From: Candidatus Omnitrophota bacterium
GTDB taxonomy: Bacteria; Omnitrophota; Gorgyraeia; VGKN01
NCBI GenBank assembly: GCA_043800345.1
Contig: JAZDNB010000009.1
Span: forward strand, 27,340 to 91,339
Length of the DNA: 64,000 nucleotides
Reading direction: 5' to 3'
The notes beneath the pieces were generated by a model. That model had not been told where the DNA came from. It did no database searches and saw only the letters and a list, made by a program, of their open reading frames with translations. Made by a program: the position numbers and the translations under genes. Shown one piece after another: positions 1-63,852 of this stretch; the stretch's first letter is position 1, and every line of letters starts with the position of its first letter.

Positions 1-245
1 TAGGGGTAAACATAGATACGAGGGCACCGCCAACGAGGCAAGCCATCGTAAAGCTCCTCGGACCTCTTTCTAACATCATCCTCCTTAGCCTATCCTCATA
101 CCTCCTTGCCAATACCCAGCTCTCAGGGTTCCTCGGCGCTCTCACTATCTGGGTGGTTATCTCTTCAGCGTTCAGCATCGTTGCCTCAGTACGCGGCTAT
201 ACTACCTATAAGACAGGCGACCTCTACGAGGCGGTAGAGCTGCTC
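1..245 (+). repeat. Copy 1 (3' portion only) of the hydrophobic module. The window opens inside this repeat.
   Basis: Encodes GVNIDTRAPPTRQAIVKLLGPLSNIILLSLSSYLLANTQLSGFLGALTIWVVISSAFSIVASVRGYTTYKTGDLYEA. Aligns to 12328-12575 and 14455-14700. Confidence 0.85.
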
Positions 246-3200: not shown

Positions 3201-6200
3201 TTGGGTTATTTAAGCAGGGAAAAAATTGAGCGTATACTCAAAGTCGGCCAGGTTCTTCCGGAAGAACTGGAAATTGTAAGAAGACGTATTCTTAGCACAC
3301 TGGATATACCTATTTCTGCTAACGCGCGCCGTGTATTATCATATCTGCATATTCTGACAATGGCAGGAAGTCTTACTGAAATTTATCCAAAATTGATATT
3401 GCCGGCATATCGTAGAGATTATTTTTTGAAAGGCTTGATTGAATTAGGGAATATCGGGCTGGTAACTTTGGATACCGAATCGGGAATGCTAACCACCCCG
3501 TTTTATCACTATGAAAGTAAGATACAGGTGGTTGATGCGTTACAAGAACCTGGAATCTTGAAATGGTTAAAGGCCCGGATGGAACCGGGGCTCTATGCAC
3601 GGGATATTTGCGTTATGATATCTTCAGTTCAAGAAGCCGACCTTGCTATTAATAAGGCATTAGAAGAAGGTTTACCTCAGGTGCAACTATTTATCTCCCC
3701 GGGTAAGGATTTTGATGCAAAACAGGTCGGACAGATATTAGATTTCATAGATAAACGGCGAGCAGAATTAGAAAATTTCCCAATCCTTGCAGGAATAAAA
3801 CTATCTATTACGCCTGATAGCGATATACTTTCGCTTAGAGAATCGGTAGGAATTGCAAACGGGCCTTTGGTAAAACTCTTGAGGGAAAAACATATGCGCC
3901 TTGACTGTATTTCTTTTTCAAATGTCCGCATCCCGTGGATAGACATTGCTACGCGTACCAATGGGTTGGAAATACTAAGACACAATCTTGACAGCCTCCA
4001 TTTTTTTACGTCCTCTGCCACTATCCATCATCTTGATATCGCGAGGATTGAAATAAGTGCCTCTGAAGTTGAAAAATTAGTTGACTTAATTGATGGGGGA
4101 AAGCTTGAACCTAATAAATTAGAGAAAATATTTGCTATGTTAGCAGAATTCGGTATTCAAGTTGAATTGCCCGAAGCTCGTCTTGGACAAGATAAGGTAA
4201 GTATTTATTTTGAGGAAGTAATCAAAAGTTATAATGCTCGAGCTCCGCCGTCTAGACAGATTCAATTTACGGATTCCTCGCGCCATACAGTAGCACTCCT
4301 CCCTGTAGTAAAACGGCTTGGTGTATTAGAAGAAACCTTGCAGCAGATTTTTGAATCACGTCGGTTGAGCGAACAACTCATAGCATATCTTGATTCATAT
4401 TTAACCGCCCATTATACCCGTTTTGATGGAGATCTCGAGGCCCTTATCACCTCCCTTATCGATTCCTATTCCTTAGAATTAAAAACAGACTTTTCTCAAG
4501 TAATATATACGGGTAGAGAAAAAGGCATAGATCACTCCCTCTGGAACGATATGCCGGAGGAATTACGCAGGGTACTTATAAGGCGTAAATTAGACGGAGC
4601 AGATATAAGTAAAGATATAGCGCATTTCCTCGGAAATATTAAACCGGAAGACATCGAGTGGTTTGACATAGAAGATTTTTCTGTAAGAACACGCCATATC
4701 TATAAAATAAATTATAAAATTCAAGTTAAAATCAAGAATGTTCCAACTCCTATCTCCGTCTTTGTTAAAATCACTACTTCTGCCGAAGAAACATTTTGGG
4801 GTGAAACTGCACAACTATTGGGTTTATCCAACCTAAGGGTCGTTGGCCTCCCCGAGAAAGGAAAAGGTCTCTTGCTTATCGAGGCAGGGCCCGGCAGGAC
4901 TCTTGATGACATTTCAGCCAATGATTTACAAAACCGTGATATTGCCAAGGCAGTATTCTCTGCGTTAGGCTCATATGCGCTCCATGATGTGCTTTCCATA
5001 GGAGATGCCTCTTTAGCCAATAATTTAGTTGGTGAAAATATCAGCAATATCCTCTCAATAGATCATGTTGAGTGCCTGCGTAATGAACTTAATATCGGAG
5101 TCCAGTATAAGGCCGATAGAAGGGGTTTGTATCTGGTTACAAAATTACGCGATACACTTAGCCCTGAAGATATCACAGAATTGCTGGTAGCCTATGAAAA
5201 GTCATATATAGCGTCATATATGCACATTTTAAAGAATGCAGATGATATAGAACGCCTTATCATTAAGTATTTTGGTCAAGATAGCGATGCACTGGGCATA
5301 TTTAGAAAAAATCTTTTGCTCGTAGGATCTGATATTTGCGGATTTTTTGATACAAGCGAGAAAATGATCCTTGCGGATATGCCGATAACCAAGGCAATGG
5401 AACATATCCGAAACAAAGTCACCGATCAGGATCAGGCCCGAATAACAGCGCGGGAGGTTATGAATGAAATGGGACTTACTTCGGAGCTCCATATCAAGTT
5501 AATCAACGATGCATTATTCTCGGAACTATCCATAAAGGATACGCTTAGCCAATTAAGAAGGGTCGATATCTCGCAGCCATCAGGTCAACTGGAAAACTGT
5601 GTTATGAAAATTTTACGTAGGCTTGCAGAAAAACAGCTTTTGCAGGAACCGGAAATAGTGGGGATGTTAGACAACATGATAGCGGAAAATGAGGAGATTG
5701 TGCAACAGCTTAGAGCCGGTAGAAGCACATATGTTCCGCAATTACTCTTAGATCATCAGAGCGTTGAAGATTTAACAAGAGCATTCAATGCTATGGGCAG
5801 TCTTTATGGACGGTTGAGATTTTATAATTGGCGGACCAAAATAGACGAAAGGGGAGGTGTAAATAGAGATTGGGATTTTGAACACGGCAGCATGGAAGAA
5901 TTTGACGAATATCTAAGAGAGAATAATGTCTACTGGGCTTATTATAACAGAACCCATTCCGGTGAACATAAGAGGGATCTGAAAGATCGCGTAAGCGGGC
6001 TTGAAATACCTATTTCCCACCAAAAGGAAGGATTACGCACTATAGCCGATGTTATTAAAAAGACGGTAATAGATTTTATACATCAAAAATACGGCGAAGA
6101 CCTGGACGTTGAAGTAATCAGTATCCGCGTCAACGGAAGCAGATTTTATAAATTATCCACTACTGATAAAGCCGCAGATATAGACAATGTAACGGTAGTG

Positions 6201-9200
6201 ACTGCCAGAAGAGATGGTCAGGAAATTCCGATACGGGATATTATATATGAACTTCCCCTCTCGGCCCGTATACCGGGAATTAATTTAACGGGAATGGCGA
6301 TTACAAGTTCCTATTATGTTAACGGACATTCGCACGATCCTCATACAATGCTTACCTACGTTTCATCTTTGAGATCAGGTATTCCTATAGTAGGTCCCCA
6401 TGCATATCAAAGTACTATGCCCGAAGATATACAACTTTTGGATGTGATTAATCTGATAGGGAGCGGTTCCGATTATCTAAGGAGAGGGCCGGGCTATTAC
6501 CGGAAATGGGTAAATAGAACTGCCGAAGTATATCTAGTACTTTTTAAACTGGGACTGCTGGAGAACTTTGACCTTAACGCCCATACTGCCATGATAGATA
6601 AAATTCATAATGCCATCATTAGTAACGATCAGAAATTCTTAAGTGAATTTCTTGCTTGGGCACAAGGTGAAGAAGAGCATTTGACCGCGCTTGTTATAAA
6701 ACGACTTGAGGAATATTCGCACAGAAGAAAGCTGGTCTTATTAAACGGATTTTATTCAACGGCTGATTCCGAAGAAGCATCTGCCTTACAAGATACCCTA
6801 AGAAGTTTAAATAGCGAGTTTGACGATATACAATCTGCGCACAAAGAGATTCCCGTAACAGAACATTATTGGAGCGGTTGGCATCATAGGTTGCACCGTT
6901 GCTATGATGATACGGCTTCACTCGAATCTCACAAAGAACTTTTGGCCGCAGAAGATAAAACATTTGATATCACTTTAGCGCAGAAAAGTCCATATGGAGA
7001 TATTTTAAATGCCCTTTTTGAACGTTATGCTTTAACAACCGGTATAGCCGGAATTATGTTTTCTTCGCAAGAGGCATGGGCATATTCGATTTATCTTGCA
7101 TTAGCGAAAAATCCACATACCCCCGTTACATTATTAAGACAAATTTATAACGTGGTAGAGGCCATGAAGGAAGGAGGGCGAAATGTGCTCGCGCCTTCCT
7201 CCGTCTTCTACCAGATTGAACTTGCCTTGGCAAACAATGTAAATATTGATACCAAACTGCTTAAAAAAATTGCAAATGCCAATTTACCTGATAGTGAAAT
7301 TGGTATAGCTGCACAAAAGACATTAAAAATTAGAGCAGCAGCCAAAGAATTGGCCAAAAGCAACAATTTGCTAATCGCCTATCGTGCAGCAAAAAAACTG
7401 CAGGATTATGGAAGTGTCGTGTCGCCCCTGCTTGTACGCATGATTAGAAATATAAATCCAAAAGATATGTTTACGCCTTTATTGGCAACCAGGATTTTGG
7501 GTACTGTCGGTGATGTAACGGCAACCAGTACTTTAATCGATTTATTAAACCAAGCGTCAAATCATTATTTGGGGAAAGACCACAAAGAAGCCCTGGGATA
7601 TTTTGCCGCAGAGGCGCTCGGCAATATTGGTGATGATAGAGCAATAACCGTCTTATTCAGTCATCTAGGATTTTTCCGATATGACGATGCAATAAGGAGG
7701 GCGACCCATTCGCCGGTTGCCTTTGCCGCAACGCAATCATTGCTTAAAATGAATAAAGATCCTGAAATGACCTCCGCTATTAATCAAAAAGTAATTAGGT
7801 ATATACACGATATTTTAACGTATGATGGAGATATGAATACAAATAACATGGAATATATAGAATTTTGCTATCGCAGCCAAAATATAGTGTACCTTTTAGC
7901 ACGCCTTGACATGGATAGACAGGAAAAAATAACCCTGTTAAAAAAGGTTATTGAAAAAACATCCGAGGTAATGATGCCGGATCTTCTGATGATAGAGATA
8001 ATGCATGAGGCAATTTCCGCACTCGGTGAGCTTAAGGCCGAAGAATGCGTGCCGCTTTTAATAGCGACTTTCTATGACAAACGTGCTCCTCCGGAAGTCA
8101 GAGCAGAAATTATCGAGGCGCTAGGAGATATTGGAACTACTGTGGCAGCAGAATTTATAAAAAATATTGCAGCGACACATGAAAAGAAACCCAAGCCGCA
8201 AGTAAATGTGGACCCGGAACGACTTGTTTATAATGCACTCAGCAGGACAATGCTTCGTTTAGATGCCCGCCAGCATAAAGTTACCGAAGACCACGGTTTA
8301 AAAATTTGGCATGCAAGTTTTCATGGATTGTATGATAGCGGCATCAGGGGGTTAGGTTTCCCCGATGGTGGCGGACAAATTTATTATCACATCTCAGTTG
8401 CTAAACAACTTGGCATGCTCGATGAAGATTTAGAGGTAAGGTCGCTTGTACGCGCAAGCGGTAGTCAGGATTGGGATATAAATGTTGATTTTGGTGCGCC
8501 TATTGACAGACTAAGTGCCCGTGCCGAATTAGACAGGATACCATTTGGCCCGGACGGCGTTATCAATAGGTATGACCTTTGGCACTTTATGGATGATTTT
8601 GACAGGAATATGACAAGATATATGGAATATGCCGGTATGCCGGATGTACTCCATATACATTCAGCTGATGCAGGAACTCTAGCGCTCGCACGATGGGCAA
8701 AATCCCATAATATCCCTGTCGTATTCGTTGTTCACTCTCCGGGACTCGTTAAACTCGAAGCCCTTACCGCATCGCGCTTACCTATATTACGAACAATAGG
8801 TGAGGATCCGCGCAGAGAATTCTTGGGGCTTAAAGAATCAATGGAATTAATAATGAGAATCGAGGCTGAAAATGAATTCTTGGAACTCTCCGATAAAGTC
8901 GTAACCTATACTGATCATGAAATTCGGGAACAATGGAAAGGCTATCCTGCCTATGAAGCCGCAATTAGAGCAAATAAGTTTTACACAATATACCCGGGTA
9001 TTGACCATGATGTTTTTAAACCCACCTCTGCCTTGACTCCTGAGGAATTGGAACGGACGAAACCTGTCAGAGACAGGATAATCAACGAGATAAGAAGGCA
9101 GATTAAAGAGGCAGGTATAATAGGGCCCGTATTTTCCATAGGGACTCTGGCTCGATTAGTCCAGAGGAAGAATTTTGAAGGTTTGGTTGAATCCTGGACA

Positions 9201-12200
9201 CAGTCAAGCGTACTGGTAAATAATAGCGTTATATTTATAGCGGGTGGTTCTGCGGATGTGCTTATGAAAGGGGAGACAACCGAGGCTCTGCGCGGAACAG
9301 AAAAAGAGATTTACCGCTCAATGGTTGAAAATGCTCGTAGAGTTCAGACCGAAGACGGACAGGACGCATCTAAACGGTTGATATTCTTAGGAAATTTAGA
9401 GCATGAGACCGACGTACCCGAATATATGCGTATTCTTGCCGATGGTATCCCGCAAGAAGGAGTAGAGCACCCGCGGCCCGATCATCCGGAGGATTGGGCG
9501 GTGTATCCTTACGGCGTATTTATCAATCCGGCTTTATATGAACCGTTTGGCTTTACACTTCTTGAATCAGCTGCCTGCGGTGCCATACCGATTATGACCG
9601 CTAACGGTGGCGCTATAGAAGTTATCGATGAAGCTGTAAACGGATTTATCGTCAATCCTTCCGCACCCGAGAGTATCAGAAGAGCATTGCTCACCGTATT
9701 TTTCTCTTCCAATAGACAGACGATGAGTGAGGCGGCTATAACCAATGTAGAGCGTAACTTTTCATGGCCTCGACATGCAAGGGAAACTTTAAAGGTATAT
9801 AGAACCGTTACGGGAGAAGAAACGGAGGTAGCGGAATCCCTTGTCCAAAAAACATTTGATTATTATGATTCTTTTATAGCAGCGCCACAATATGTTGTGT
9901 CAGAAACTACTTTTACTCCGGAAGCGAAGATAGATGTATTGTTGGTTGAACCGCAGGATTTTGTAGACACGGCAGTTGCAATAGGAAAAGATATAATAGG
10001 CAGGTTCTCCGATCGCAGTTTAAGAGAGAAGATAGAAGAATACCGAAAGAGGGAAGTTAGAGAAAGAGTAAATCATGAAATCTTGAGAGCAGAAAGTATT
10101 TTCCAAGAGGCAGAGCGTATCAGGAGTGAAAATCCGGACAGCAGGGGTGCAGAAGAATTTGTTAAGAAAACCATTAGTTTGTATGCCCAAGCAGAAAATA
10201 TATATGCGAAGATCGGCGTGGCATTAAGATCTCCCGATGATATTATATCAAGACAGCAACAAATAGCACGGCTTAGAGAAAGCTATATCGTTACCTCAGG
10301 CTATGAGGATACAAGGCCTGATCAAATATGGTATGTTACCTGCTGCGACAGAGATATCGAGCCTCTTCTAGGGAGTTATCTTGAAGAATTAAAACTGTGG
10401 GGTTTCGGAGGAGACAGGATATATGATCCTATAGAGGGAGGAACTTATTATAAAAAAGTTGAGATAGCCATTTTTGAAGATAGCACTGACGAAACGATTA
10501 TTAACAAAAATTTAGCCATAATTGAAAAATATAGAAGTCTGGGGTTGAAAATCAGGTATTGCGGAATCGAAGATTCTTTAGTGAAAGATGCTCCCGAACT
10601 CGGCCCAAGAGACCGTGTTAGAAAACAGTTATGGTATACAAGCCAGAGAGATATTATCAGGTTTTTTGGTAAAGAGCGTGCATTAAGACTGCTGGGGATG
10701 TCGCCAGAGAAATTTGATCTGCCGGCAGAAAGACAGATTACAGAGACAGGGCGCAGAGGTTATGGCAATGCGAGAGAAGGGGTGCGGTTATGGGCGTTAT
10801 ATGAATATAATCGTATGCCTCATAATGTGCTTTTGGGTAGCATAGACGATGATGAGCCTATCGGTCAAATAATTCAGTCAGCAAGCGGCTACAAGGTACT
10901 AAGGCATGCAACTAACTGGTTTAATAACTATGGGAGAATGTTTGAGCGCTATCCCGACATTTCCATACTCTCCGGTAACGTTACGGGCGATAGCGCAATC
11001 GAAGGCGTTGCCCCAAATATTTTTGTTAAGACCTGCAGCCACTTATTGACATTGCTTGACTTTGCCTCGTTTCGTTCGCCACATGATGCTTGGCCTGCTG
11101 AAGACGATATAAGAGAATTATATAGAGCCCAGGCACCAAATCCTGCTTATGGGCTTAATCCCACAGCGCATGCGCATATTAATGAAAATATGGCAGCGCG
11201 GAAATATGCTCAGGCAACCAAGAAACAGTATCGTTTCCCAATCCCAGAACAAGGGCAACTGACGTTAGGTGAACAATTGAGGATGATTTTAGAAGACATA
11301 AATTCTGTATATTTTGGAAGATGGCTTACGAGGCCTATTCTTTATAGACATGGGGGAGTAGTAATCGGAGCCCAAGATGAGCCCATTCCTTATATAAGAA
11401 AAGCGCCTGAAGGTCCGGTCATGGGCGGCCTTCTTTTAATGCGGAAAGATGCTTTTGTCTCATGGCCTTTGCCAAAAGGCGGTTTTCATGATTTACGTTA
11501 TGCAAGTCCTACACATCTGCGCCTACTCCCGAAGTTCGGATTCCCCGTGCATGGAGTTTTTATGCCTGCGCGTCATCAAAGGACACAGGAATATCGTTTT
11601 GATCTAATGCAGAGCGAGGAAATGCTCGATTTTCAAAAAAAGATAAATTATGGATTGGAAGATGAAATTGGTAACAGGTTATTTTTTGCAATGCTAGATT
11701 TTTATCATATTGATAGCGCTGAAGGTTTACAGACCATGCCGTTTGATGCATCGGTATTTGCTCGAGAACACCCGGAGATTTACGATAGAATTGTGAAAGA
11801 TGCCGTACGCACTCAAATTACAAATATAAAAGAAATTAATCGGCTTGTCGGCTTACTTAAGGCGATGTTTAACCAGCAATATTGGTGGCAACTGGATTCG
11901 AATTTTACGCAGGCCATAACAGAGTTAAAACGATTTGTAGCTATAGCAGAGGCAAATTATGGAACATACGATATTACGGATCTTAACGTACGGATTAGAC
12001 ACTATATGGAAGAAACAGGATTTGCAGCTTTAACCGCATATCTTAACGGAATGCGTGACGGGATTGAGGTAGTGCATTCTGTTATTTCAGAAAAGATTAC
12101 ACTTCCTCCGGTAAAGTCTGTTTCCGAACTACCTATATCGGAACCGCAAACCCAATCCACCCTTGCCAATTTCTTCACCTACGCCCTGAAAGGTAAGTTT

Positions 12201-15200
12201 ACCGTCTTAAACTGGATAACGAGGATACTGGGACTACCCGCCATAGTTATGGAAGAACTCATCTCCCATTATCTTATCGGTAATTTCTTTGCACGGGTAC
12301 ATCTCCAGAGCCCAACCTTGAGCTATGTAGGGGTAAACATCGATACAAGAGCACCTCCTCTGCGTCAAGCCATCGTAAAGCTCCTCGGACCTCTTTCTAA
12401 CATCATTCTCCTTAGCCTATCCGCATACCTCTTATCTTCTACCCATCTTTCCGGGCTCCTTAGCGTAATTACCGCCTGGTCTTTAGTTGCCTCAGTACTC
12501 AGCATCGTTGCCTCAGTGCGCGGCTACGCTACCTATAAGACAGGCGACCTCTATGAGGCGGCGCAGCTCTTAAAAGGGAAATACCCAAGACTTATTTCTT
12601 TCCTGGGAATTGAAGAAAGCCGCCTGCTTAGCACACTTTCTAAAATTTCTATTACGTGTGCAATAGCGGCAGTCGTTACCCTTTATTCATTCTTCCGTGT
12701 TAATATCTTCTCCTCTTATACGCGCCCTATAGTCGGAGCGGATGTTTTTATATCTTTCCTGGCCGTTGCTGCATGGTTAATGTGGGTCCGCGAAATCTTT
12801 AATACTATATTTAACAGGGCATTATACATCTTGCGTAAGGGAATTCCCGAACTTACCAGAAGATCTCTTGTTGTTCTTATTGCTACAGGCATTATTGTTA
12901 TGACAAGCGTACTGGCTCCTTTCACCCCGACACTTAACTCAGACACATCTTATATGGCTAGTACGAGTACCCCCCTGGTTCAAAAAAATAATTTTGCCCA
13001 GCTCCCCAGTCAGCGCCTTCCAATAATTCAGGTGACGCCGGAGCTATATCGTGCGCCCGCAGCGCAAGAAGCACTGAGACAGATCACAAAAGAAGAACAG
13101 ACGACCCTTAACGTTATTTTCTCCGAATATGTTGCCCTAAAGAATACGCTAAGAAATAACGGGATAACACAAGAAGAAATCAATGCGCAGGCCGCCCGTT
13201 TTCTTACATCTCAGCTTAGCGCCAGGTGCCCAAGGCTTTATCCTCTATACCGGGAATTTGAAAGACTGTGTACGCGCTATGGCGAAGAAGGGCGCGTTCT
13301 CTTAGCGCTTGGTGCCGGAAGGGATCCTATTTTTGCCCCCCTTATCTCATTTTTTTCCGGTTATCTCGGATTTGGAAAGTATATCAAAGGCGAAGTTCCT
13401 ACTCATGCGGCATTAGTCTCATTAACAGGAGAGGGTAGTCCCATCATGTATGAGATGATACCGGGAAAAGACGTACGCGCTACCTCATTGATCGAATTTT
13501 TCATGCGGTATCCAACCGCGCAGTTATATCTCTTCCCGAAGACCGATACGACGTTGTTTGACGAATTATCCGTTTATTTACAACAACAGGTGGGGGCTAA
13601 GTCAGCATTCGGATATTTCAGCTGGGTTAACGGAAGATTTTTCGGAGGTTATTGCAGTGAATTTATTTATTCAGTGCTTATCAAGATATTTGGAAGTCAT
13701 TTTTCCATAGCACTTCCCGCATATCCACCTACAAACGGATGGTTGTTTTTTAGTCCTTTTGTGATGGGCTCAAAGATCATCTCGCCTCTGCAGCTGGGAG
13801 GATTAACAATTGACGGTAAGCCGCTCCAGCTTATATTTGAAGGTCCCGGATTTAGCGAGACTGTTGCTGCTGCCTTAGTAAGAAATATAGGTAACCTATT
13901 TATATGGGCAGGAAATCGCCTCATCAATGTAGTTAACAATACTGTCAGTCCGGTCTTCCAGCAGGTCCTGTTGTTTGTAGCAACAGGCGTTATACCTTTA
14001 CTGGTATTAGCAAAGAGAAGATTATTTTCATCCCGCCCCGCGCAAGAAACAACAAATGAGGCAGAAGCCGAAGGGCTAACTCTTCGAGAAAAATTAGAAA
14101 TAATCAGCGGAGTCTCCTTCATAGAGATTTTAGTAATTAAACTTTTATCCAACTATGTCGCCATCCCCCTTGCAATAGCGATACCGCTTTTGGCTTCTTT
14201 CATTTTATATGCAGCAGTAAAAAGAATCCCTCTTGAAACACAGGAAGATGCGCGGGATATTGATAAACGCGATACTACCCAATCCGCCCTTGCCAATTTC
14301 TTCACCTACGCCCTGAAAGGTAAGTTTACCGTCTTAAACTGGATAACGAGGATAGTGGGACTACCCGCCATAGTGATAGAGGAGGTCATCTCCCACTATC
14401 TTATCGGTAATCTCTTCGCACGGGTACGTCTGCAGAGACCGACCTTAGGCTATGTAGGGGTAAGCATCGATACGAGGGCACCGCCAACAAGGCAAGCCAT
14501 CGTAAAGCTTCTCGGTCCTCTTTCTAACATCATCCTCCTTGGCCTCTCCGCATACCTCCTTGCCAATACCCAGCTCTCGGGGCTCTTGAGCGCTCTCACT
14601 ATCTGGGCAGTTATCTCTTCAGCGCTCAGCATCGTTGCCTCACTACGCGGCTACACTACCTATAAGACAGGTGACCTCTATGAGGCGGCGCAGCTACTTA
14701 GGAAGACCAAAAAGCAACTTGAGCTGTCAGCAGATGATGAAATAATGCTAGGTACCATGACTCACGGGTGGGGTACCGGCATAAGATGGATGGTAGAGAA
14801 AGAGTCGATACGAGACCTGTGGACAATATCCAAACAATTTGAATTCCAGTTTGGCAATCTAAAAAAACGTTTTCTAAAAACCGAACATGCAAAACTATCT
14901 CCCTATGAACAGAAAATTTTCGATAAATTGGGAGAGCTCTACGTAGCGCTTACCGCATATAAACCTTCTTCGGTAACAATAGGAAAAGCGCTGGAAGGAA
15001 TTCTCAGCGAAGCAAGACGTCAGGAAGGAATTGACATTGCCGAACTCGGGGCTGCCCTAACAGAACTAGAGCAACGTTACGCAAATATTGAGAATGAATT
15101 TAAGCAACAGAAAACCCATGAAGAAATCGCCGCTAACCTCAAACAGGCAATGGCAGCGGCGCTACGTGCTATGATGCCCGGAACCCTGCAAGAAGAAATC

Positions 15201-34280: not shown

Positions 34281-34297
34281 TTTTATATTGCGAAATA

Positions 34298-34326
34298 TTG
34301 AAAGTTATAGCAAAATAAGGTATAAT
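34298..34326 (+). promoter_or_regulatory. Sigma70-type promoter for giant gene 2: TTGAAA (34298-34303), 17-nt spacer, TATAAT (34321-34326)
   Basis: Consensus hexamers with optimal 17-nt spacing in a 146-bp AT-rich intergenic region. The ATG is at 34427. Confidence 0.55.
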
Positions 34327-34426
34327 TTAAGTATAACATATTTTAAACATTACTATTATGTAGTTTTAATTAACTTTTATAATTGCATAAATAATTATAC
34401 ATAAATTTAAAAGGTTAATCCTAGAT

Positions 34427-46400: not shown

Positions 46401-49400
46401 TACTTGGAGGCAGCCAGGATATTGATCCTGAGCTTATTGACGCCGAAATATTAACAGCATCTAACGGCGAGGCATTCTTATTGTATCTTGATGATAGAGA
46501 CGACAGATGGGCGGATATTTTTAGACGGAATCAGAGTCTGAGCTGGGGGCATGTAAAAGGCCAGCCTCATAAAATCAGGGTTTTGTTAAGGCATCATACG
46601 GGTATCGGCCCCATGAGCGATACCGCAAGCCTCAACTGGGATTTGCCCGAAGTAAGAAATTGGGCGATAGGTATCCTTCGCGGGTGGCACGATGCGGGGA
46701 TTGACGGTTTTCGATGTGACCTTGCGCAAAATGTCCCCGATATATTCTGGAGAGAAGCAAGAGCCGCTTTATCTGGGGCAGTCTTTTTGCATGAAGATTA
46801 TGCTTCGAGCGAGCAAAAAAGAATAAGGCAGACAGTAACGGGCGTAGATGGTTTTTATAACCATGAGCTTTATAATGCCATGCGCGAAAAAAATCCTCAG
46901 CGTATCCGAGATTTACTCGCTCAGCAGGCTTCTTACCTGCGGCATTTAGTCAATTATATGGGCAATCATGATGAGAAATTGGCATTAGCGATTTGCGGAG
47001 GGAACAGAGACCGCCTTATGGCGGCCGAGACAATTATCCAGACCTTGCCCGGTTATAGTATGTATTACTGGGTGCAGGCAAAGGGATGGCAGTGGCAGGG
47101 AGAAGAAATCAAAAGAGAGCTTACCTATGAATCTTTTATGGCACTCTCGGAAAAAGAGAAAGAAGACCCCGCGGTTTTAAGCGGATATAGAAAATTAGAG
47201 AAAATAACGGATCAGCCCTTGTTTAAGGATAGTGCCGAGATTACCGTTCTTGAGTCAGATAACCCTTCTTTTGTAGCATATAGAAGACATTGCCTAAGCG
47301 AAGAGTTCCAGGATGAAAACGCCGTAGTTATTGTTAATTATTCTGACAGCGCAAATATCGGAACGGTTAAATTAGTCCCTGAACAATTGGGCGCTCCCGG
47401 GGGGGCAGAAGAGCGATATTTTTTCCTTTACGATACTATCCAGGATAAGTTGTACCTCTATACTGACAGTGAACTAAGAGATTTCAAACAGAATCTGGTG
47501 CCATGGGAAAGCAGGGTATATCTTGTAAGAGAGATTCATAACCCAAGCGAGGTACTTAAATCGTATAAACGCGGTTTAGGAGATATTAAACTGTTGAATA
47601 TAGAAAAATTATCAGAGCAATCCCTTCCGGTTAGCCAGAGACTGTTACTTCAGGCTGAGATTGGGAGGTTCGTAAAAGATGTCGGGACGGGAAACGGTAG
47701 TTTTTTACAAAAGATGGAAGAAGTTTTTGGTTGGGAAAAAATTGATTGTGACGAGGCTTCCAATATCTTTGCACTTTTATTGCAGGAAAAATTCAGAGAA
47801 CTCGGCTATGAAATTCCGATTTCAGCAACAGGTTCAGAGAGAATACAGTTTATCAATATGGAGGTCCAATCGGTTGCAGTACGCCCCTGGCCGCATTATT
47901 GCATTGTTGTATATTGGGATAATAAACCATGGCTCTATATCGACTCATCTTTTTCCAGATTCTTCAGGTATGACAGAGAACATACCTATGAGGTTTTATG
48001 TGAACCTCTTGACTCGGTAAGTGCATCTCGGATAGAACAAATCATAAGACAAAAAGGTGTCGAGGTGGGTATACTTACGGTTAATGCGGATGAGAAATGG
48101 CATGTACCCTCTTTTGATTCTGCCGCTGTCAGGGATACGGTGATGAAAAATGCGAAGATGCGAGCCGTACTTATGTGGTTTTTACACTCTGCACCAAGAG
48201 ATGAAGAAGAGGTAGCGCCCGCGCAAGCGCGTACCGAGAGAAAAGAAGAAAAAGCGCGTTCTGCCGTATCCTGGGTCAACATTGGCGTTGCAAGCCTTGT
48301 AGTGGGCGTCATTGCTATTCTGCAATATATGAATGTACTCCCTTACCAATATCTCGGCCTTATAAGCTTTATTTATTTTATTTCATTTTTGATTATCCAT
48401 GAGCTTGGCCACTGGAAAGACGCCGGTTTTAGAAAATTTTCCTTCGGTGAACTCTTTACCAGAGAAGGTATCTCAATTCCCGACTCGGAAGGCCTGCCGG
48501 GGATTGTTACAAGTTTAGGCCTCGTCTTCTGTTTATCAACCCTCTTTGTGGTGTCATCTTTATTCCTGTCGCACTATTCAGCGTATCTTATTCCCGCAAT
48601 TGTCATAAATTTAATTTTTGCCTTATCGGTAGGGGACTGGAAAAAAGCACTCATAGAGACAAAGATTGACCGTCCCCTGCGTATACTCACCCCTCTTGGA
48701 AAACGTGCGCGGTTAATAATAAACGAATATGCCCCGTTCCTGCGCAGGGCGGTTACTCATCTTAACGATAACCAGATAGGGCTTATCAGTTTAGCTGCGC
48801 TGGCCGTACTTGGTGCGCTCGTTATAGTGTTGAGAGTTGACGTGTATGCGGTGCCCTTAGCAGGTCTTAGTATACGCAAGGTTTCAACTAACGGCCCCGG
48901 CGGCGATACCGATAGTTCTTCCGCAAATGCCTTGGCCGCTCATATAAGGCAGGAATTCGGAAAACCAGAGCTATATCTTAATAAGCCCGCATTTACAAAG
49001 CAGGAAATACGCCAGCTTCTTAGTTTGCTTCCGAGCATGAAGAGCCGCATGAGGTATATAGACCAGATAGTAGAACGTATCGTGTATGCGCGTAGAATAA
49101 AAGAATTTGAATCGCTTGACGATTTGCGGGTAAGGGCGCGCCTGCCTTACCGAGTAATGAGAGATTTTGAGCTTTTAATTACCGGCGGCGTGCTTATGGA
49201 TGTCCCCTTGGGGGAAAGAAGGCTTGTGCATAAGAGGGCCGTAAGAGAGCCGTTAAGCGAAGAGGTTATTAGTACGGGCCAGATAGTTTCAGAAAGACTT
49301 TCTCAAGAGACAGAGCGGTTGCGCGACATATTCAAGCTTTTATCCGCCGTCGGTAAATCCGAGGATCTTCCTCGCGGTATAAGAGATGAATTGGAACGCA

Positions 49401-52400
49401 GGGGGTATCACGCATTATTTAATCTCTCGCCGGCGTACCAAGAGGCATTATTGCTGCTTCTTGAAATAAAATTTCTCTATAGCATTAGGTTCACCGCGCG
49501 GGAGCGAACCAGATATCTTTTGTATGTAGAGGCTCATGATAAACGTAAATACGAATTATTTATGCGGTTGTCAGCCAAAGATCAGGATTCGGCTGCTATG
49601 GTACGCAGGAAATGGTTTAAAGGTATTGATATTGCACTGCTCGCCGAAGAGATAGCGCTCTATCTTAAGGGGGAGCATCCTCGCGACAAGGCATTTGCCG
49701 ATTTTATTAAGGTTGCAAGAAGAGGCAAGGGCAGGTTGCTGCTCAATGAGCTTATAAAAATACTCTCCCCGCTTTCGCAAAACGCTCTCTCCCTTAATTT
49801 TTCAAAACGAAATTTAAGGCTCGCCTATCTTCTTAAAACATGCAAAGAAATTCTAGGAGAGGTTACAAAAGAAGATAAGGCCGGATTATTGCAGTCTCTT
49901 AATATTCCCTCGGAAGACGACCTTTTGGCTATAGATATCGGGATACTTAAAGAGAGCATTTATAGGCTTAGACAATATGGGCTTACCGTTACCGCAGAAA
50001 GGCTAAGGCTTGACGAAGGCGAGATAGCGGGAGAGTTTCAAAAAGAAATTGCCGGTTTTATAGGAATGCTTGCAGGAAGCGATGAAGAGCAAATACGAAA
50101 TGCGGTGCAGAGACTTAAGCTTATGTATATGCTGCAACCAAAGCTTTTCATGAAGGGTACCTCCGATGGAAAAGACCTGGGTAGTCATAGGTCTTCCATC
50201 GTCCCGGTAAAGAGCGCGGTAAAACTTACTTATTTCGGAGGGGATGAAATAAACTGCGGTGGAATACTCATAGAAGACGGCCGGGAAAAATTAAAAACGA
50301 GCCTGCTCATTGACCCCGGTATAAGCATGGATAGAGAAGCGGAACTCTATTCTAAGATATATATGCGCGACAGGGTAGTGCACCTGGGGATAAGAGACCG
50401 GCTTATTAACGGTCTTATGCCAAGACTTAAGGGCTTATACAGGCCGGACCTTACCGAACCAAGCATGAAAATATCGGCTGCTACGCCTCCCGTAGACGGT
50501 ATTTTGGTAACACACGCTCATATAGACCACATAGGAAATATTGCGTATATCAGGAATGATATCCCCATATGGGTAAGCCCCGAGACGCGTGCGGTTTTAC
50601 GCACATTGGATAAAACAGGCGCAGACATAAAAAATGAATATTTTGATTTTGTAGACAGAGAAACCGGAAGAATGATCCGCAGAAAGATAAATGTGTTTGA
50701 ATATGATGTGCCCTTTATGGTAGGCAAACTTAAGGTTATAGCTAAGCGCGTTGATCATTCGGCAGTAGGTGCGTGTGCGTTTTTTGTAGAAACATCCCAG
50801 GGCTGGGTTTCATATGTCGGGGATATGAGGATGAACTATTCAAGAGATACCGCGGGTACGCTACGGTCGTTTAAGAACCGGACAGAGGATTATATCGAGG
50901 CGGCGCGTCAGCTGTCTCCCGTGGTGCTCTATATAGACGGAACAAATTTTGAGAAACCTCATACCAAAGATACCGAAGAGGATATCGGCAAAAGAACAGA
51001 TGAGCTGTTACAAGGCGATGAAGTAAAAAGAAAACCCGTAGTAGTGAGTTTTAGTTATTTAAATCTGGAAAGGATGAAAATCTTTCTTGAGGCTGCGAAA
51101 AGAAACGCAAGAAAGCTTGTCATCTCCATGAAAGAGGCATATCTGCTTGAATCTCTTAAAGAGATTTTCCTTAGAATGTACTTGGCAAAAAATGGATTTG
51201 AAGAGTTGATTATAATCGTCGATAGGGCAGATATGGCGGCGAGGGTATTACTCCACAGGAAAGAAGAGGGGGCGTTACGCGATGTCATGCTTTGCGGAGT
51301 TATGGTACATATGGAGAACTATTATGCAAGTGGGCTTCTACAGGCTTGTATGGGTTCCGTTGATGCACAACAAGCACAATTAATAGCCTTGGCGCTCGGT
51401 TACAGCAAAGGCAAGCCCCCTAAAACCGACAAGGGCATACCCGAAGCCCGAATAGAGGAATTATTTACCGGCGAAACCGCAGAGGCCATTGCGGCGCGTG
51501 CCGTATTTTTCAAGTGGTTGCATGGTGTGCAAGAAGTTAAGGCGCCGGATGAAATAATGGAGCAGATAGCCGGGCGTTATGTGATTGAGCAGGGCATGGT
51601 GAATGCTGAGGCGGAAAAAGTAAAAACCGAGGGCCACGAGATGCAAAAGTTACTTAAAGAAACCTTTGCGGTATTAGAAAAAACTAACCTGGAAGATCTC
51701 TCCGAGAAAATAGAAAAATTTAGCATGGAAGATTACGGCTATCCCGATCTTGAAAAGGAAGAAGGGTTGCTCGTATATCAGGCCAGAAAAAAAACCGGCA
51801 CATATGACGAAACAAAAGATTACCGCAGGTTTGAAAGGTCCATTCTTGCCAACCCGCGCATACGACGGATAAGAAAAGAAGAAGCCGCTCAACAAAAAAG
51901 CGAACTAATGATTTGTCTTAATACCTACGAGATATCCGAGATACTTGGTATTTTTAAATACGGAGAAGGCGGGGTACATATATATTCTCAATCGCCTCCG
52001 TTTAACGTTGAAACCGAGATAGCCGAAGATAAACTGGATGAATGGCTGGCTGATTATAAAATGACCAAGCGCTATATCCATGCCTCCGGCCATCTTACGG
52101 CAGAACAGATTCCCGATGCGGTGCGCACGATACAACCCGCAAGCGTTTATGTAGTCCATTCCAAAAACAGGGGGTCGCTTGCGCGGATGCTGAGAGAAAA
52201 TGTCATGGCGCAGGGACAAACTACTGTAGTGCTCTACGCCAAGCAATATTCCCTGCTTGAAGGTGAGAGCCGATTTGAATCCCTTCCGGAAGATGTTGCA
52301 AAGATGCTCCCTGAAGCCTCAAGGATATTTTTAAGCCGTCTTACCAAGGACCAGATAGCGGGCATTGTCGAGGAACTGAGCGTTGTCAAAAAGGACGTTA

Positions 52401-55400
52401 CCATCCAGGAGGAAATAAGCGCTATCTTCAGGGATGCGAAACGAAGAGCGAGAATTTTTACGTATGCAGAAAGGCCGGATTCAAAAAACATCGATGATAT
52501 TGCCGATAAAATAGAAGAGCTGCGGCTGTACTTTAAAAGTCAGCTTATAAGGATCCAGATGCAGGAAATGCTCGGTGTGGTCTCCGGTGAAGAACTAAAA
52601 AATGCGAGGTTGGTTCTTTCTGACCGTATCTTCAATGCGCTTGTTGATGAAATAGCAATGCCAAGCCTGATAGCGAGGCTTACCGATAGCATAAAAGAGA
52701 ATACCGGCATATCAATGACAGCGGCGCGAAAAGAAGCGAGAAACATATTTGTATACAGAATAAAGAGAAAATCCGCCGCATTGCTTTTCCATCACTGGGA
52801 AGAGACTAGGGGACCGCTTCGCTTTATGATGATATTTAAGGAAGGCATGAAACCGCTCTATGCCAAACTTGTTACCGGGATAGTTTATGATACCGTAGCG
52901 GAATTTTTTAAAGGATTAGAAGGCGAATTCGAACTTCCCGTACCCGTTGGCGGCAGCATAGATGCCGCAATACGAATAATGGCAAAAGGAGAGCAGGTAC
53001 TCCGTGAGGATGAAAAGGAATATGCGAAAGATATCATCGACGGCCTTGTAATGGCGGTAGCGGACAAAGATCTTATGAAGCAGTTAAAGACAATGGCTCT
53101 TCTATATGCAAGCAGGGGCGTGAGCAGATTACGCAGACGTCCCGAGCAAGGACCAACGCCTGTCGACAGGACCTATGAGGCTATAGTCAATATTATAACA
53201 GAGCTTATTCAAACTATAGCAAGCGGTGATGTCGTGCTTTCCGAAAAACAAGTGAGCGCTTTTTCCTCATTGATAGCCACGAGGATTCTTTCGGAGGTAG
53301 CAAGACAGTTGACGTCGGGAGAAATTACGCTGTCTGAGTTGGCGCGTATTTTAAGGAGCCTCGGTGCCTTAACCGCCTCCCCCCGTAAATCATCACCCGG
53401 ACAGAAAGAACAAGACACAGGTATAAGTATTTCTTCTCCGATAAAAGATATCATCGTTTCGGTAATAACGCGACCTCCTGCAGTTTTAATTGGCATGGAA
53501 TTAATACTGGATATCGGTAACCGTAGTGCGCTCTTTAATTCCATCACTCAATTTTTAATGTACGGCGGGAAAATTATTATGAGCGTGGAGGCAGACAATT
53601 CACAAGTTACCTATGAATTCAGAAAGGCCTTGGTGACATATATCAGGGGTCTTTATCCGTTGGGCGCGCCGGAAGATATGACAGGCGGAATAATTTTAGA
53701 GGATAGCGGAAGGTATTATAATCTGGATAATATATCTTTAAAAGACATTCCCAGGACAGATGTTACCCTATCAGATGATAAACCCCTCAAAGAACAGCTT
53801 GAGGAGCTCATAAAGATCATACGAAAGCAGACCAATGAGATGAGTTTAACCGAGGAAACCGAATGGTATAAAACAAACATAGCTTTGCTTGCGCAGCATG
53901 GTTTAGCGGACAAAGGTGATAAACTTGCACGGGATAGATTTTTACCCCACAAAATTAAACTTTTGAAAGAATTCTCTCTTGACCTGGGGATGATTGATAG
54001 GTATGCACTTTCGACTCTCCAGAGGCGTATCGCAAATCTTAAAGCATACGGTAGCGAGGTAACCGCCAGCAATCTTAGATTGACAAAAGAGCAGTTAGTC
54101 AGGACATACCGCACGACAGTATTACAGTTGCTTCAGAAAGAGCCTGCCGAAGATGTGATCGTGCGCCTTAAAGAACTTTTTAAACTTCAACCCGCTTTAT
54201 TTATGTCAGTGACTGCGGGAGGACGTTTGCTCGGGCAAAGAAGAAAAGATGTAATACCCGAGGCAGTAGGAGGTATTACCTTCTATGGTTCCGTAGGCAA
54301 GATAGGTGGCAATATCATAATGGTTCGGGATGTGGACAGTAAAATAGTTTTAGATATGGGTGCCGCAGGGCACAGTTGGGGAGAATATTTTTCCGGGTGG
54401 AGTAGTTTTAAAGTTCATGAGATGGTAGACGGAAGTCTTGAAGTTGGAATATTGCCGTGGTTGCCTGATGCCATGAGGGAGGATATGTTAAAAGGTAAAA
54501 GCGGCATGATTCCTATCGAGAGCCAAGGCGTAAAGGCGGTTCTTCTTACCCACGCACATCTTGACCATGTTGAGAGCCTTTATGCTCTTGATCCGGATGT
54601 GCTGGTTATTTGCTCCGAAGAAACAAAAGCGACGCTGGAAACGCTTCAGTGGCAGACGCCGGGGAGCATTAGGACGGAGTTAGTTGAGGTAAAAGACAGA
54701 ACCGATATGACTACCATTCCTTATCCGAGATTACCGCGTAACATGGTTACCTTCAGGAGGGATACCCCGTTTCAGGTAGGTTCTTTTAAAATAACGCCTG
54801 TGAGGGTGGGGCATTCCGTACCTTCCGATGCCTTTGTAGTAGAGACTTCTATGGGTAAGATCGTATATACCGGTGATCTCACCGTGCAGAGTCATGACGG
54901 GGCCCGTACGAGAGAATTTTTTGATATGCTTGCTAAAGAACATAATATCCTTGCGCTTATCACGGAAGGCGTTAATGTGCGTTATGAAAAACCCGCTACC
55001 ATCGCAACCGAAGAGGAATATGCACAACGCACAGACCAGATTATCAAGGCGTCAAAAGGAAAGCCTGTTTTTACAAGTTTTTCCTGGATGTATGTGAATA
55101 GGCTTAAAACGTATTATGCACTTGCCAAGGCAAATAAGAGGAAATTAGTAGTACCTCTTAGGAGTCTCTATTATGCGATGAAATTACGCGAACTCGGTTA
55201 TGATATACCCGACCTTTTAAGCGATCCGGATGTGCTCGTTCATGTTCCGGAGAGAAAATGGCAGTACACTATACATCAGTTTATCTATCAGTTGTTCGGA
55301 AAGGTGGCCGACGTAAGAGGAACAAAGGTCAGGCAAAAATTGCCCACCCAGACTAAGATATACGGCGAACTTCCCGACGAAAGAATGGTTAATTCGGAAT

Positions 55401-59579: not shown

Positions 59580-59608
59580 TTGACAAAATGAAAGGAGGTG
59601 CATATAAT
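59580..59608 (+). promoter_or_regulatory. Sigma70-type promoter for the efflux-like operon: TTGACA (59580-59585), 17-nt spacer, TATAAT (59603-59608)
   Basis: Perfect consensus hexamers with 17-nt spacing, about 150 nt upstream of the TTG start at 59755. Confidence 0.6.
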
Positions 59609-62499: not shown

Positions 62500-63852
62500 A
62501 TGCCGCTTAAGAAAAAAAAGCTTTTCTTTATGGTGTTTATAGTCATAGCAGGTGTCCTTATTCTCTACGCCTATAACACATTTATAAGAAAACCAAAACC
62601 GCTTAAAGAGGAAGGGGTAAAAAAAGAAGAGGTTCAGAAAGAAGAACAGATTATACCGGTACGAGTCTTTAAGGTTGCAAAACAGGATTTTGTCGATTAT
62701 TTTCCCAGCATGGGTACTGCAAAGGGCGCGGCGGAGGTGAATCTTAAATTTGAAGCCACAGGTGCTATTGAGGCACTGAACTATAAAGAGGGTGATGTAA
62801 TAAAAAGAGGCGATGTGATCGCTACATTAAATCAAAGAGATGCACAGCTTAATATTGAATACAATAAGTCTAAGTTAAAAACAGCCCAGGCAGAGACTCA
62901 GGCAGTTAAGAAACGCCTGGAGGTATATCAAAAGCTCTATGAAGCAGGTTCAATCATAAAAGCAAAATTGGATGAGATAACGCAGGAATTTGAGGTAGCA
63001 AAATCAAAGGTAGAAACGGCGAAGCTCGAGGTGGAACACGCTGAAAATGAGCTGGAGAAACAATCCCTCTTTGCGCCGATAGACGGAGTCCTGACGGCAA
63101 AGGATGTCGAGATCGGAGAACTTGCAAATGCCAATACAAAGGTGGGGACTCTTAGCGATCTCAGTGTTATGTATATAGAAATAGGGCTTACCGAGAGCGA
63201 TATCGAGAAGATAAAGGTAGGACAGACTGCAAAGCTTAATTTTGATACATACCCCAACCAAGAGTTTAATGGTGTTATTGATAACATATTCCCGCAGATA
63301 GAAGGTAAAAGCAGGACCCTTACGGTAAAAATAAAGGTTGATAACAAGGATTTGCTGATTAAGCCGGGGATGTTTTCCAGGGTAGCAATAAAAATATTCG
63401 AAAAAAAAGATGCCTTGCTTATACCGGTTGGCGCCTTACGGGGTAAAGAAGGAAAGTATTTCCTATTTTTAGCAAAACAAGAGGGGGCTGCGCCACAGCA
63501 AGAGGACAAAAAAGAAGAACCGGGAAAATACGTGGCCCTCCAACGGGAAGTGAAGCCGGAATATAGGACAATAGAATCAGCTGTTATCAAAGAAGGCTTA
63601 AGCGAGGGAGATCTGGTGGTTACGGAGTCGCAGGGGGAACTGAAGGACAAAAGCCCCTGTGAAGTATTAGAAATACAAGAATCCGGTTCTAAAGAATCGC
63701 AAAAAACGGAATCGGAAAATGAACAGCCCATGCTAGAAAATCCGGAGTCTGCCCAGCCTCCGTCAAATTTGCTGGACATGCAAAAAATTATGGAAGAAAA
63801 ACTTAAAGATAAAAATGCCGAATCTGAGCAACCGGACGTAAGTCAAGAATAG
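62500..63852 (+). CDS. HlyD-family membrane-fusion (periplasmic adaptor) protein of a tripartite efflux system
   Basis: Strong Shine-Dalgarno GAGGAGG 6-7 nt before the ATG. N-terminal TM anchor MPLKKKKLFFMVFIVIAGVLILYAY. Lipoyl/biotinyl-like segment KEGDVIKRGDVIATL. Coiled-coil hairpin rich in A/E/K. Beta-barrel segment VGQTAKLNFDTYPNQEFNGVIDNIFPQIEGKSRTLTVKIKVDN typical of RND/ABC efflux MFPs. Charged low-complexity C-terminal tail. Confidence 0.75.
   Translation: MPLKKKKLFFMVFIVIAGVLILYAYNTFIRKPKPLKEEGVKKEEVQKEEQIIPVRVFKVAKQDFVDYFPSMGTAKGAAEVNLKFEATGAIEALNYKEGDVIKRGDVIATLNQRDAQLNIEYNKSKLKTAQAETQAVKKRLEVYQKLYEAGSIIKAKLDEITQEFEVAKSKVETAKLEVEHAENELEKQSLFAPIDGVLTAKDVEIGELANANTKVGTLSDLSVMYIEIGLTESDIEKIKVGQTAKLNFDTYPNQEFNGVIDNIFPQIEGKSRTLTVKIKVDNKDLLIKPGMFSRVAIKIFEKKDALLIPVGALRGKEGKYFLFLAKQEGAAPQQEDKKEEPGKYVALQREVKPEYRTIESAVIKEGLSEGDLVVTESQGELKDKSPCEVLEIQESGSKESQKTESENEQPMLENPESAQPPSNLLDMQKIMEEKLKDKNAESEQPDVSQE

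Follow-up and report, generated by a model that had tools for sequence, protein, structure and literature searches.

Two questions are raised by a 64,000-nt stretch of DNA from a Candidatus Omnitrophota bacterium (contig JAZDNB010000009.1, assembly GCA_043800345.1; hereafter the window): whether the two very long open reading frames (ORFs) that fill most of it are genuine genes, and what their products might do. The analysis indicates that they are probably two genuine giant Omnitrophota genes, arranged in tandem on the same strand, whose products, judged from their sequences, would form a membrane-tethered multi-enzyme platform of the Archaeovorin or 'multi-enzyme metabolic' type. Exactly four ORFs of at least 300 aa are present in the window, all on the + strand (nt 153–34280, 34427–59404, 59755–62454 and 62500–63852). 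The giant genes and the gap between them are as follows:

3–34280, + strand: ORF1, 5′-truncated giant gene of at least 11,425 codons, with domain matches along its length.
34281–34426, + strand: intergenic gap of 146 bp, 16.4% GC, with stops in all three frames.
34427–59404, + strand: ORF2, complete giant gene with an ATG start, 24,978 nt, 8,325 aa.

Upon translation, frame 3 was free of stops from nt 3 to the TAA at 34278–34280, giving 11,425 sense codons; the figure of 11,375 aa reported for ORF1 in the initial annotation results if counting begins at the first GTG (nt 153). Its description of two adjacent giant genes on one strand was confirmed, with at least 11,425 codons for the first and exactly 8,325 for the second. 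At ≥34,278 and 24,978 nt, both exceed the 20 kb used for single ORFs by Seymour et al. 2023. The other five frames contain 741–1,460 stops across the window (56–93 stops per 1,000 codons in the forward off-frames), and the probability of such open frames by chance is ∼10^-360 for ORF1 and ∼10^-262 for ORF2. In every 3-kb bin, G occupies codon position 1 at a frequency of ∼0.33 in the open frame vs. 0.14–0.26 in the other frames. GC content is ∼44% in the ORFs vs. 16.4% in the gap, and the codon usage of ORF1 and ORF2 is correlated with r = 0.97. Uniform coding signal, common codon usage and enzyme domains spread along both ORFs support real coding. The earlier statement that these are real genes and not pseudogenes was thus upheld; its addition that they are not mis-assemblies was too firm for a claim made from sequence alone.

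Readings of the ORFs as pseudogenes or non-coding DNA, as nonribosomal peptide or polyketide synthases and as repeat adhesins were rejected, as no such domains or repeats were found: among the Pfam and NCBIfam matches of both ORFs there was no condensation, adenylation, ketosynthase, acyltransferase or carrier domain, and no Ig, cadherin, RTX or dockerin domain. Scans of the window for tRNAs, Rfam RNAs and tandem nucleotide repeats (Tandem Repeats Finder, TRF) were all empty. The gap had been described as promoter-containing. Its length of 146 bp was verified; the promoter, TTGAAA-17-TATAAT at 34298–34326, is a consensus match only, since a 1.1-kb scan gave 4 promoter-like sites vs. 2.9 ± 1.9 in shuffles and is therefore not enriched. 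The sequence AAAAGG lies a few bases 5′ of the ORF2 ATG.

The true start of ORF1 lies outside the window, as follows from a repeated transmembrane (TM) module within this gene. The repeats of ORF1 are:

1–254, + strand: ORF1 TM module, partial copy 0, aa 1–84; the window starts inside this copy.
12150–12923, + strand: ORF1 TM module copy 1 with a TM-helix cluster, aa 4050–4307.
13953–14720, + strand: TM-helix cluster with ORF1 TM module copy 2, aa 4651–4906.
15469–15942, + strand: in-frame tandem duplication of a 237-nt (79-aa) unit, 84% nt identity, just 5′ of the first ARMT1 domain.

The first 84 codons of ORF1 share 88–94% amino acid identity with aa 4110–4193 and 4819–4901, and nt 1–252 are 78% identical to nt 12328–12579 and 89% identical to nt 14455–14706. 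Complete copies of the module (∼150 aa, ∼450 nt) start 178 nt earlier, at 12150 and 14277. As the window starts inside a third, in-frame copy, the GTG at 153 cannot be the start of ORF1, and the proposed upstream continuation of the gene holds. A window start inside so short a module is unlikely to arise by chance; it may coincide with a contig end broken in the repeat, in which case the true length of ORF1 would be unrecoverable from that assembly. The first 600 aa of ORF1 gave no match among the Genome Taxonomy Database (GTDB) representatives, the source genome not being among the representatives searched, and a 32-nt exact search of Joint Genome Institute (JGI) metagenomes for upstream sequence found nothing. 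The 237-nt duplication was missed by TRF because it has only two copies.

These repeats also bear on whether one or both ORFs are chimeric joins made at internal repeats of a short-read metagenome-assembled genome (MAG). Possible mis-join points are offered by the three ∼450-nt module copies (78–89% nt identity), the 237-nt duplication and an 88%-identical module pair in ORF2; in addition, contig ends often fall in repeats, and the first nucleotide of the window lies in a repeat copy; ORF1 aa 4030–5330 have no homologue among 5.8 billion proteins. However, the repeats are diverged, not identical, and none of them interrupts the frame, the codon-position signature or the codon usage. A random join would keep the frame open one third of the time and several joins would be needed, and circular long-read Omnitrophota genomes contain equally long and longer ORFs with this architecture. 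A chimeric origin is considered very unlikely.

The domain content of both proteins was mapped with Pfam and NCBIfam scans in two registers. TM helices were taken from a Kyte–Doolittle hydropathy scan and their orientation from the positive-inside rule. ORF1 holds ∼12 distinct families, any one in at most 2–3 copies:

810–1682, + strand: weak haloacid dehalogenase (HAD)-phosphatase-like region with a DxDxT motif ('DFDDT'); sole Pfam match Hydrolase_3 (PF08282), sub-threshold at E = 0.024.
7383–8177, + strand: HEAT/PBS-lyase-type repeats (HEAT_2 E = 1e-14, HEAT_PBS E = 1e-12, NblB/CpcE-like matches); another HEAT at 1704–1799.
8277–9812, + strand: glycosyltransferase family 4 (GT4) domain with an insertion (Glyco_transf_4, Glycos_transf_1), nearest to the sucrose-phosphate-synthase GT domain; TIGR02472 E = 6e-27 and 2e-24, well under the equivalog cut-off.
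15900–18719, + strand: two ARMT1-like damage-control phosphatase domains (PF01937 E = 5e-20 and 2e-10) flanking a hexapeptide (GlmU-like left-handed beta-helix) segment; Hexapep, GlmU and damage-control phosphatase models also match.
21921–22145, + strand: adenosine-deaminase-like segment (PF00962 E = 5e-6, 26.3 bits vs. a 27-bit cut-off; TIGR01430 E = 3e-5).
23181–24998, + strand: complete UDP-glucose/NDP-sugar 6-dehydrogenase with N, central and C domains (PF03721 E = 1e-50, PF00984, PF03720).
25686–26288, + strand: TM-helix cluster of ∼5 helices, aa 8562–8762 (hydropathy scan).
26616–26933, + strand: phosphoribosyltransferase domain (PF00156 E = 4e-9).
29943–30518, + strand: galactokinase-type GHMP kinase (GalKase_gal_bdg, GHMP_kinases_N, TIGR00131 E = 2e-10).
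33234–34187, + strand: PfkB-family hexose kinase, the last ORF1 domain (PF00294 E = 3e-16, TIGR03168).

A weak DUF294 nucleotidyltransferase was also matched in ORF1. The UDP-glucose 6-dehydrogenase is the only model above an NCBIfam curated cut-off, TIGR03026 giving 238 and 163.5 bits (cut-off 189.8) on its two halves, which a chunk boundary had separated. At 24807–24998, a further, partial UDPG_MGDP_dh central domain looks like the remnant of an internal domain duplication. Separately, 12001–16000 is the sole 4-kb bin with negative GC skew (−0.041 vs. +0.025 to +0.163 elsewhere), and its codon usage correlates least well with that of ORF2 (r = 0.73); the bin falls on the part of ORF1 that is rich in TM helices and bears the repeats.

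In ORF2, the following features were found:

34457–34513, + strand: N-terminal hydrophobic signal-anchor or signal peptide, aa 11–29, with a K/R-rich N-flank and 'AYA' after it.
35762–36175, + strand: Pro/Thr/Ser-rich linker with repeated 'SQEF' units, aa 446–583.
36344–37348, + strand: P-loop uridine-kinase/phosphoribulokinase-type domain (PF00485 E = 1e-7, AAA_16, NF004018 E = 2.5e-13).
38519–38965, + strand: HExxH TM module A, aa 1365–1513, 4 TM helices.
39002–40888, + strand: region resembling the stand-alone protein P0001 (see below), with weak UDP-sugar-pyrophosphorylase-like motifs; sole Pfam match PF01704, sub-threshold at E = 0.046.
40943–42175, + strand: unannotated module X copy 1 (∼410 aa), aa 2173–2583, paralogous to copy 2; no Pfam family.
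42278–42478, + strand: TM-helix cluster, aa 2618–2684.
43193–43837, + strand: glycosyltransferase family 5 (GT5) starch/glycogen-synthase catalytic domain (PF08323 E = 4e-14; GlgA model).
44693–45922, + strand: unannotated module X copy 2, aa 3423–3832.
46622–47470, + strand: glycoside hydrolase family 13 (GH13) alpha-amylase-family catalytic segment (PF00128 E = 2e-6; weak GlgE-C-like PF21702; MalA/TreS models).
48224–48832, + strand: HExxH TM module B, aa 4600–4748, with one extra TM helix at aa 4784–4802.
50297–52171, + strand: metallo-beta-lactamase/RNase-J-like beta-CASP domain 1 (PF12706, PF00753, weak RMMBL, TIGR00649 E = 5e-11).
54287–55186, + strand: metallo-beta-lactamase/RNase-J-like beta-CASP domain 2, paralogue of domain 1 (TIGR00649 E = 1e-17).

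An AlphaFold2 (AF2) model of ORF2 aa 1506–2168, built from a two-sequence alignment, was unusable (pLDDT 36.5), so that the UDP-sugar-pyrophosphorylase assignment rests on the motifs and the sub-threshold PF01704 match. By a tally of matched intervals, recognisable families cover ∼25% of each protein; enzyme domains are therefore present as initially described, and 'packed with conserved enzyme motifs' is an overstatement. Three dark regions gave no match to PDB sequences. The hydropathy scan placed ∼30 helices in about nine TM-helix clusters across both ORFs, in keeping with the roughly 22 helices per protein given for published giants of at least 10,000 aa.

Each ORF is accordingly a chain of normally separate cytosolic enzymes, with HEAT scaffolds and long unannotated stretches between them and TM clusters interspersed. 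Elsewhere, kinases, dehydrogenases, phosphoribosyltransferases, GT4 and GT5 enzymes, GH13 enzymes, phosphatases and RNase-J-like nucleases of this kind are cytosolic, needing ATP, UTP, NAD+ or phosphoribosyl pyrophosphate (PRPP). In the proposed mechanism, each ORF would be translated as one polypeptide, which the TM clusters would thread into the inner membrane, with the enzyme blocks hanging on its cytoplasmic face. Two points favour the cytoplasmic face: the enzymes need ATP, UTP, NAD+ and PRPP, and from the K/R-rich sequences that border the HExxH modules of ORF2 both termini of the module are predicted to lie inside the cell (N-in/C-in). The ORF1 and ORF2 products would form a platform of fixed stoichiometry, which could make NDP-sugars and alpha-glucan from sugars and nucleosides of the host and salvage nucleotides, as part of the host-dependent lifestyle of these very small cells. 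Within it, the HExxH modules of ORF2 would probably act as membrane anchors and may double as intramembrane metalloproteases. An analogy is provided by eukaryotic multi-enzyme fusion proteins (CAD, AROM) and viral polyproteins, in that fusion of related enzymes in one frame guarantees co-expression and co-localisation. Unlike these, the window giants have tens of domains, are membrane-threaded, carry cargo that differs radically between close relatives and give no evidence of channelling or processing.

Several points weigh against this reading. Approximately 75% of both proteins is without a recognisable domain, so that the metabolic interpretation is drawn from the smaller part of the sequence, and the HAD, UDPGP, adenosine deaminase and DUF294 assignments are sub-threshold. 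The exact ORF2 sequence was not found in a 15-billion-protein collection, which thus holds no independent gene call, and the SecA-DEAD domains, C39/S8 peptidase domains and type II secretion system (T2SS)-like neighbours that the literature describes as typical of full-length giants were not seen in the window. The topology evidence, a simple hydropathy scan and the positive-inside rule only, is weak. By naive counting, the ORF2 anchor and the even-numbered TM clusters put aa 30–4613 outside the cell, and the cytoplasmic reading of ORF2 requires that a weak hydrophobic segment at aa 226–244 or 347–365 also spans the membrane.

The same naive count would fit a surface or predation apparatus, i.e. 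a mostly exported coat that binds prey or host and digests envelope polysaccharides, as proposed for the V. archaeovorus giant and the Archaeovorins. Further in line with such a coat are the N-terminal signal-anchor of ORF2 with its AXA-like site, the Pro/Thr-rich linker typical of exported proteins, the presence of HEAT, GT5 and GH13 domains, which are cited for the surface model, and the outer-membrane channel gene that adjoins the locus. However, enzymes dependent on ATP, UTP, NAD or PRPP would be without substrates outside the cell, and the blocks on either side of the HExxH modules are predicted to be cytoplasmic from the K/R-rich flanks of these modules. Pfam scans of both ORFs gave no lectin, dockerin, TSP3, Ig-like or lytic-transglycosylase domain, no T2SS or pilus genes lie within the window, and the neighbours in relatives are a resistance-nodulation-division (RND) efflux set, not a type I secretion system. 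An exported coat is therefore held to be improbable, and the cytoplasmic platform is favoured over it since the identifiable enzymes are nucleotide-dependent and cytosolic.

The only part that these giants share with the giant proteins of relatives is the HExxH module, for which no Pfam family exists. Modules A and B of ORF2 are 58% identical over the aligned 149-aa windows, with as much as 69% identity in the conserved core. Among 1.84 billion cluster representatives, a profile search yielded only 11 proteins with this module, some holding two copies and all 1,017–5,918 aa long except one of 244 aa. In the GTDB scan it was present in two genomes only, both Omnitrophota MAGs, in each of which the whole 10–12-kb locus is one open frame; a scan of JGI metagenomes for the module found nothing. 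Across 14 copies, H59-E60-x-x-H63, G93, S97, N129, S135 and D138 are invariant. The HExxH motif is placed at the end of a predicted helix (41–66), at the cytoplasmic end of the TM helix, and the AF2 model of the module (pLDDT 82) consists of four long helices with a small beta-hairpin that follows the HExxH helix. An N-in/C-in arrangement, which would place the flanking enzyme blocks in the cytoplasm, is suggested by the K/R-rich flanks and by the loop behind this helix.

These properties make the module weakly similar to site-2 proteases (S2P) of family M50, such as E. coli RseP and M. jannaschii MJ0392 (PDB 7w6z, 3b4r). As in these enzymes, HExxH lies close to the point where a TM helix meets the cytoplasm and an Asp is conserved in a helix further on; the AF2 model adds a short beta-hairpin behind the HExxH helix and what may be a compact helical-bundle core. 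The ORF2 module differs from S2P in having only 4 helices and ∼150 aa, no PDZ or CBS domain and a different Asn-Asp motif, and in being embedded, in up to two copies, in proteins of several thousand residues, whereas S2P are free-standing. If the resemblance were functional, the HExxH modules might cut the giants at neighbouring TM helices into separate enzymes, the ORF being a polyprotein or 'single-ORF operon'. For this speak the position of the HExxH with the invariant N-x8-D in a later helix of all 14 copies, the top PDB profile match, to M. jannaschii S2P 3b4r with the alignment covering the HExxH helix (E = 0.021, not significant), and Peptidase_M50 (PF02163) as the commonest weak Pfam match (2 of 14 copies, best E = 0.042, sub-significant). 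The hairpin of the model also lies where the membrane-reentrant beta-loop of RseP structures sits, namely after the HExxH helix. That giants might be cleaved, by C39/S8 domains, has already been speculated in the literature (West-Roberts et al. 2023, bioRxiv 10.1101/2023.11.21.568195).

Against such cleavage, every sequence match is below significance, and a Foldseek search of the model against the PDB returned nothing significant (best E = 2.8, no S2P). Although all copies have N129 and D138, the motif that these form is N-x5-S-x2-D, lacking Pro and DG, in place of the NxxPxxxxDG of M50. The repeated TM module of ORF1 is without HExxH and has no detectable relation to S2P or to the ORF2 module, so that ORF1 would lack a protease; and S2P normally require a prior site-1 cut, for which no site-1 protease is visible. 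Taken together, cleavage into separate enzymes is regarded as unlikely, and this and the chimeric assembly are possible but less supported readings. The stronger proposal that the module is an active S2P-like protease cutting the giant polypeptide at its own TM clusters, and that at least this subfamily of giant genes consists of self-processing bacterial polyproteins, is more doubtful still. If it were true, one ORF would yield many enzymes by regulated intramembrane self-processing, which would explain the free exchange of cargo with retention of the module.

An Omnitrophota origin, which the initial annotation had proposed to test with neighbouring genes, is supported by the two genes downstream of ORF2:

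59755–62454, + strand: TolC-family outer-membrane protein with AMIN, UVR motif, K/E-rich spacer and OEP; 100% identical to MFH0838638.1.
62500–63852, + strand: RND/HlyD periplasmic adaptor; 100% identical to MFH0838639.1.

Both NCBI entries, which belong to a 127,549-bp contig, have Candidatus Omnitrophota labels, namely 'MAG: TolC family protein [Candidatus Omnitrophota bacterium]' and 'efflux RND transporter periplasmic adaptor subunit', respectively. Depositor labels and the Omnitrophota MAGs having the HExxH module, the only two GTDB genomes with it, thus support Omnitrophota as the source.

Relatives of the TolC gene occur in two MAGs, GCA_964506845.1 and GCA_020052955.1, in which a contig-truncated giant gene (8,467 and 9,075 aa, respectively) lies upstream of TolC. 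In GCA_020052955.1 the giant gene directly adjoins TolC; in GCA_964506845.1 one 962-aa HD/HDOD-domain gene lies between (L002, nt 6611–9499), which is present neither in the window nor in GCA_020052955.1. In both MAGs, TolC is followed by adaptor, TPR/PDZ, HAMP and RND-pump genes. Compared with the window, the OEP part of TolC is 76% and the adaptor 66% identical. In tblastn and phmmer comparisons, however, the giants of the relatives have only one ∼150-aa TM module, the HExxH type, in common with ORF1 and ORF2. Their Pfam content is different as well (histidine-kinase ATPase, DUF218, methyltransferase, Fe-ADH and signal peptidase II). The locus is therefore conserved while the cargo of the giant gene has been almost completely replaced, in agreement with the poor conservation of giant ORFs (PMC10066038; bioRxiv 10.64898/2026.06.07.730766).

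For ORF2 aa 1350–2650, a single homologue was found in a database of 5.8 billion proteins, the stand-alone 1,947-aa protein P0001, which is 48–55% identical by segment to ORF2 aa 1526–2154. The same block hence exists in a giant gene and in a normal-sized gene elsewhere. P0001 is encoded at nt 617–6460 of L001, a Logan contig of SRR31065122, among ordinary genes (NamZ, SSF transporter, rhodanese). Tandem giants were also seen elsewhere, at nt 1–34919 of a 165,645-bp contig (L007; ENA ERZ27252253 k141_2263623), where proteins of 15,781, 4,972, 2,214 and >1,306 aa are encoded on the same strand. The 4,972-aa protein contains the HExxH module and a glycogen-phosphorylase domain, and a small 23S_rRNA_IVP-family gene lies between the first two giants.

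Giant genes had been called rare and characteristic of only a few lineages, including Omnitrophota. The second part is correct; rarity does not apply inside this phylum, where such size is routine. Of 116 Velamenicoccia genomes, 77 have ORFs >20 kb, which are common in other classes of the phylum as well (PMC10066038), and one or more proteins of ≥10,000 aa are encoded in 93.8% of complete Omnitrophota genomes (bioRxiv 10.64898/2026.06.07.730766), with thousands of such proteins on record. Two giants in an Omnitrophota contig are thus expected, and the locus is one more example of a class catalogued in thousands.

Archaeovorins are defined by HEAT, GT5 and GT1 content and many TM helices, the type sequence being a 39,678-aa protein of Velamenicoccus archaeovorus LiM (West-Roberts et al. 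2023, bioRxiv 10.1101/2023.11.21.568195). The window giants resemble them in phylum, in HEAT and GT4/Glycos_transf_1 (ORF1) and GT5 (ORF2) domains, in sugar-phosphate enzymes, in many TM helices and in their mostly unannotated, fast-evolving sequence. The Archaeovorin study set is of >30,000 aa. ORF2, with 8,325 aa, is much shorter, and for ORF1, which is cut off by the window edge, at least 11,425 aa are seen. Also unlike Archaeovorins, no SecA-DEAD, C39/S8 peptidase, methyltransferase, NUDIX or GGDEF domains were detected in the window; the divergent SecA DEAD/preprotein-binding domain described for 'most' giants was absent from the Pfam scans, and the 5′ part of ORF1 outside the window could hold one. 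Downstream, TolC and the RND adaptor are found here vs. pilZ, solute-binding proteins and glycoside hydrolases in Archaeovorins. Archaeovorins are preceded by a T2SS/type IV pilus-like secretion cluster (West-Roberts et al. 2023); here, the upstream side lies outside the window.

In the multi-enzyme class, PF08323 and PF00534 lead the sugar-metabolism module (Nielsen & Lui 2026, bioRxiv 10.64898/2026.06.07.730766). Both are present in the window giants, which like this class are TM-anchored, without nucleotide tandem repeats and near-unique in sequence; unlike it, they are without phosphoglucomutase, response-regulator, radical-SAM and ROK domains. ORF1 falls into the class (≥10,000 aa, many Pfams, none dominant), and ORF2 has the same architecture, below 10,000 aa. 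By term search, M50, site-2 protease and metalloprotease are unmentioned in West-Roberts et al. 2023 and Nielsen & Lui 2026, TolC and efflux are unmentioned in the former, and polyprotein, cleavage and 'adjacent' in the latter. The HExxH TM module and the conserved placement just upstream of TolC, adaptor and RND genes are hence put forward, tentatively, as modest additions. The value of the locus lies in its being compact and relatively well annotatable, and its identifiable domains, almost all of them nucleotide-dependent cytosolic enzymes of sugar-nucleotide, alpha-glucan and nucleotide-salvage metabolism, argue for a membrane-tethered metabolic platform vs. the prevailing idea of an extracellular, cell-wall-degrading coat. 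The rare HExxH module marks a giant-protein subfamily, may be a protease and may provide a handle for dissecting giants, and the TolC–adaptor–RND anchor beside replaced cargo is a natural system for studying giant-gene turnover.

A type I secretion reading of the TolC/HlyD pair was rejected, because NCBI names the adaptor RND-type and the relatives have ACR_tran pumps downstream. A TTGACA-17-TATAAT sequence at 59580–59608, identical to the sigma-70 consensus in 12 of 12 positions, lies ∼150 nt 5′ of the TolC start and suggests that the efflux genes may be transcribed independently of the giant genes. The TolC-family protein itself is unusual in its build, being composed of a weak N-terminal AMIN domain, a UvrB/UvrC (UVR) motif, a ∼300-aa Lys/Glu-rich low-complexity spacer and the OEP barrel; in its relatives, the barrel is 76% identical vs. 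40–43% in the N-terminal part.

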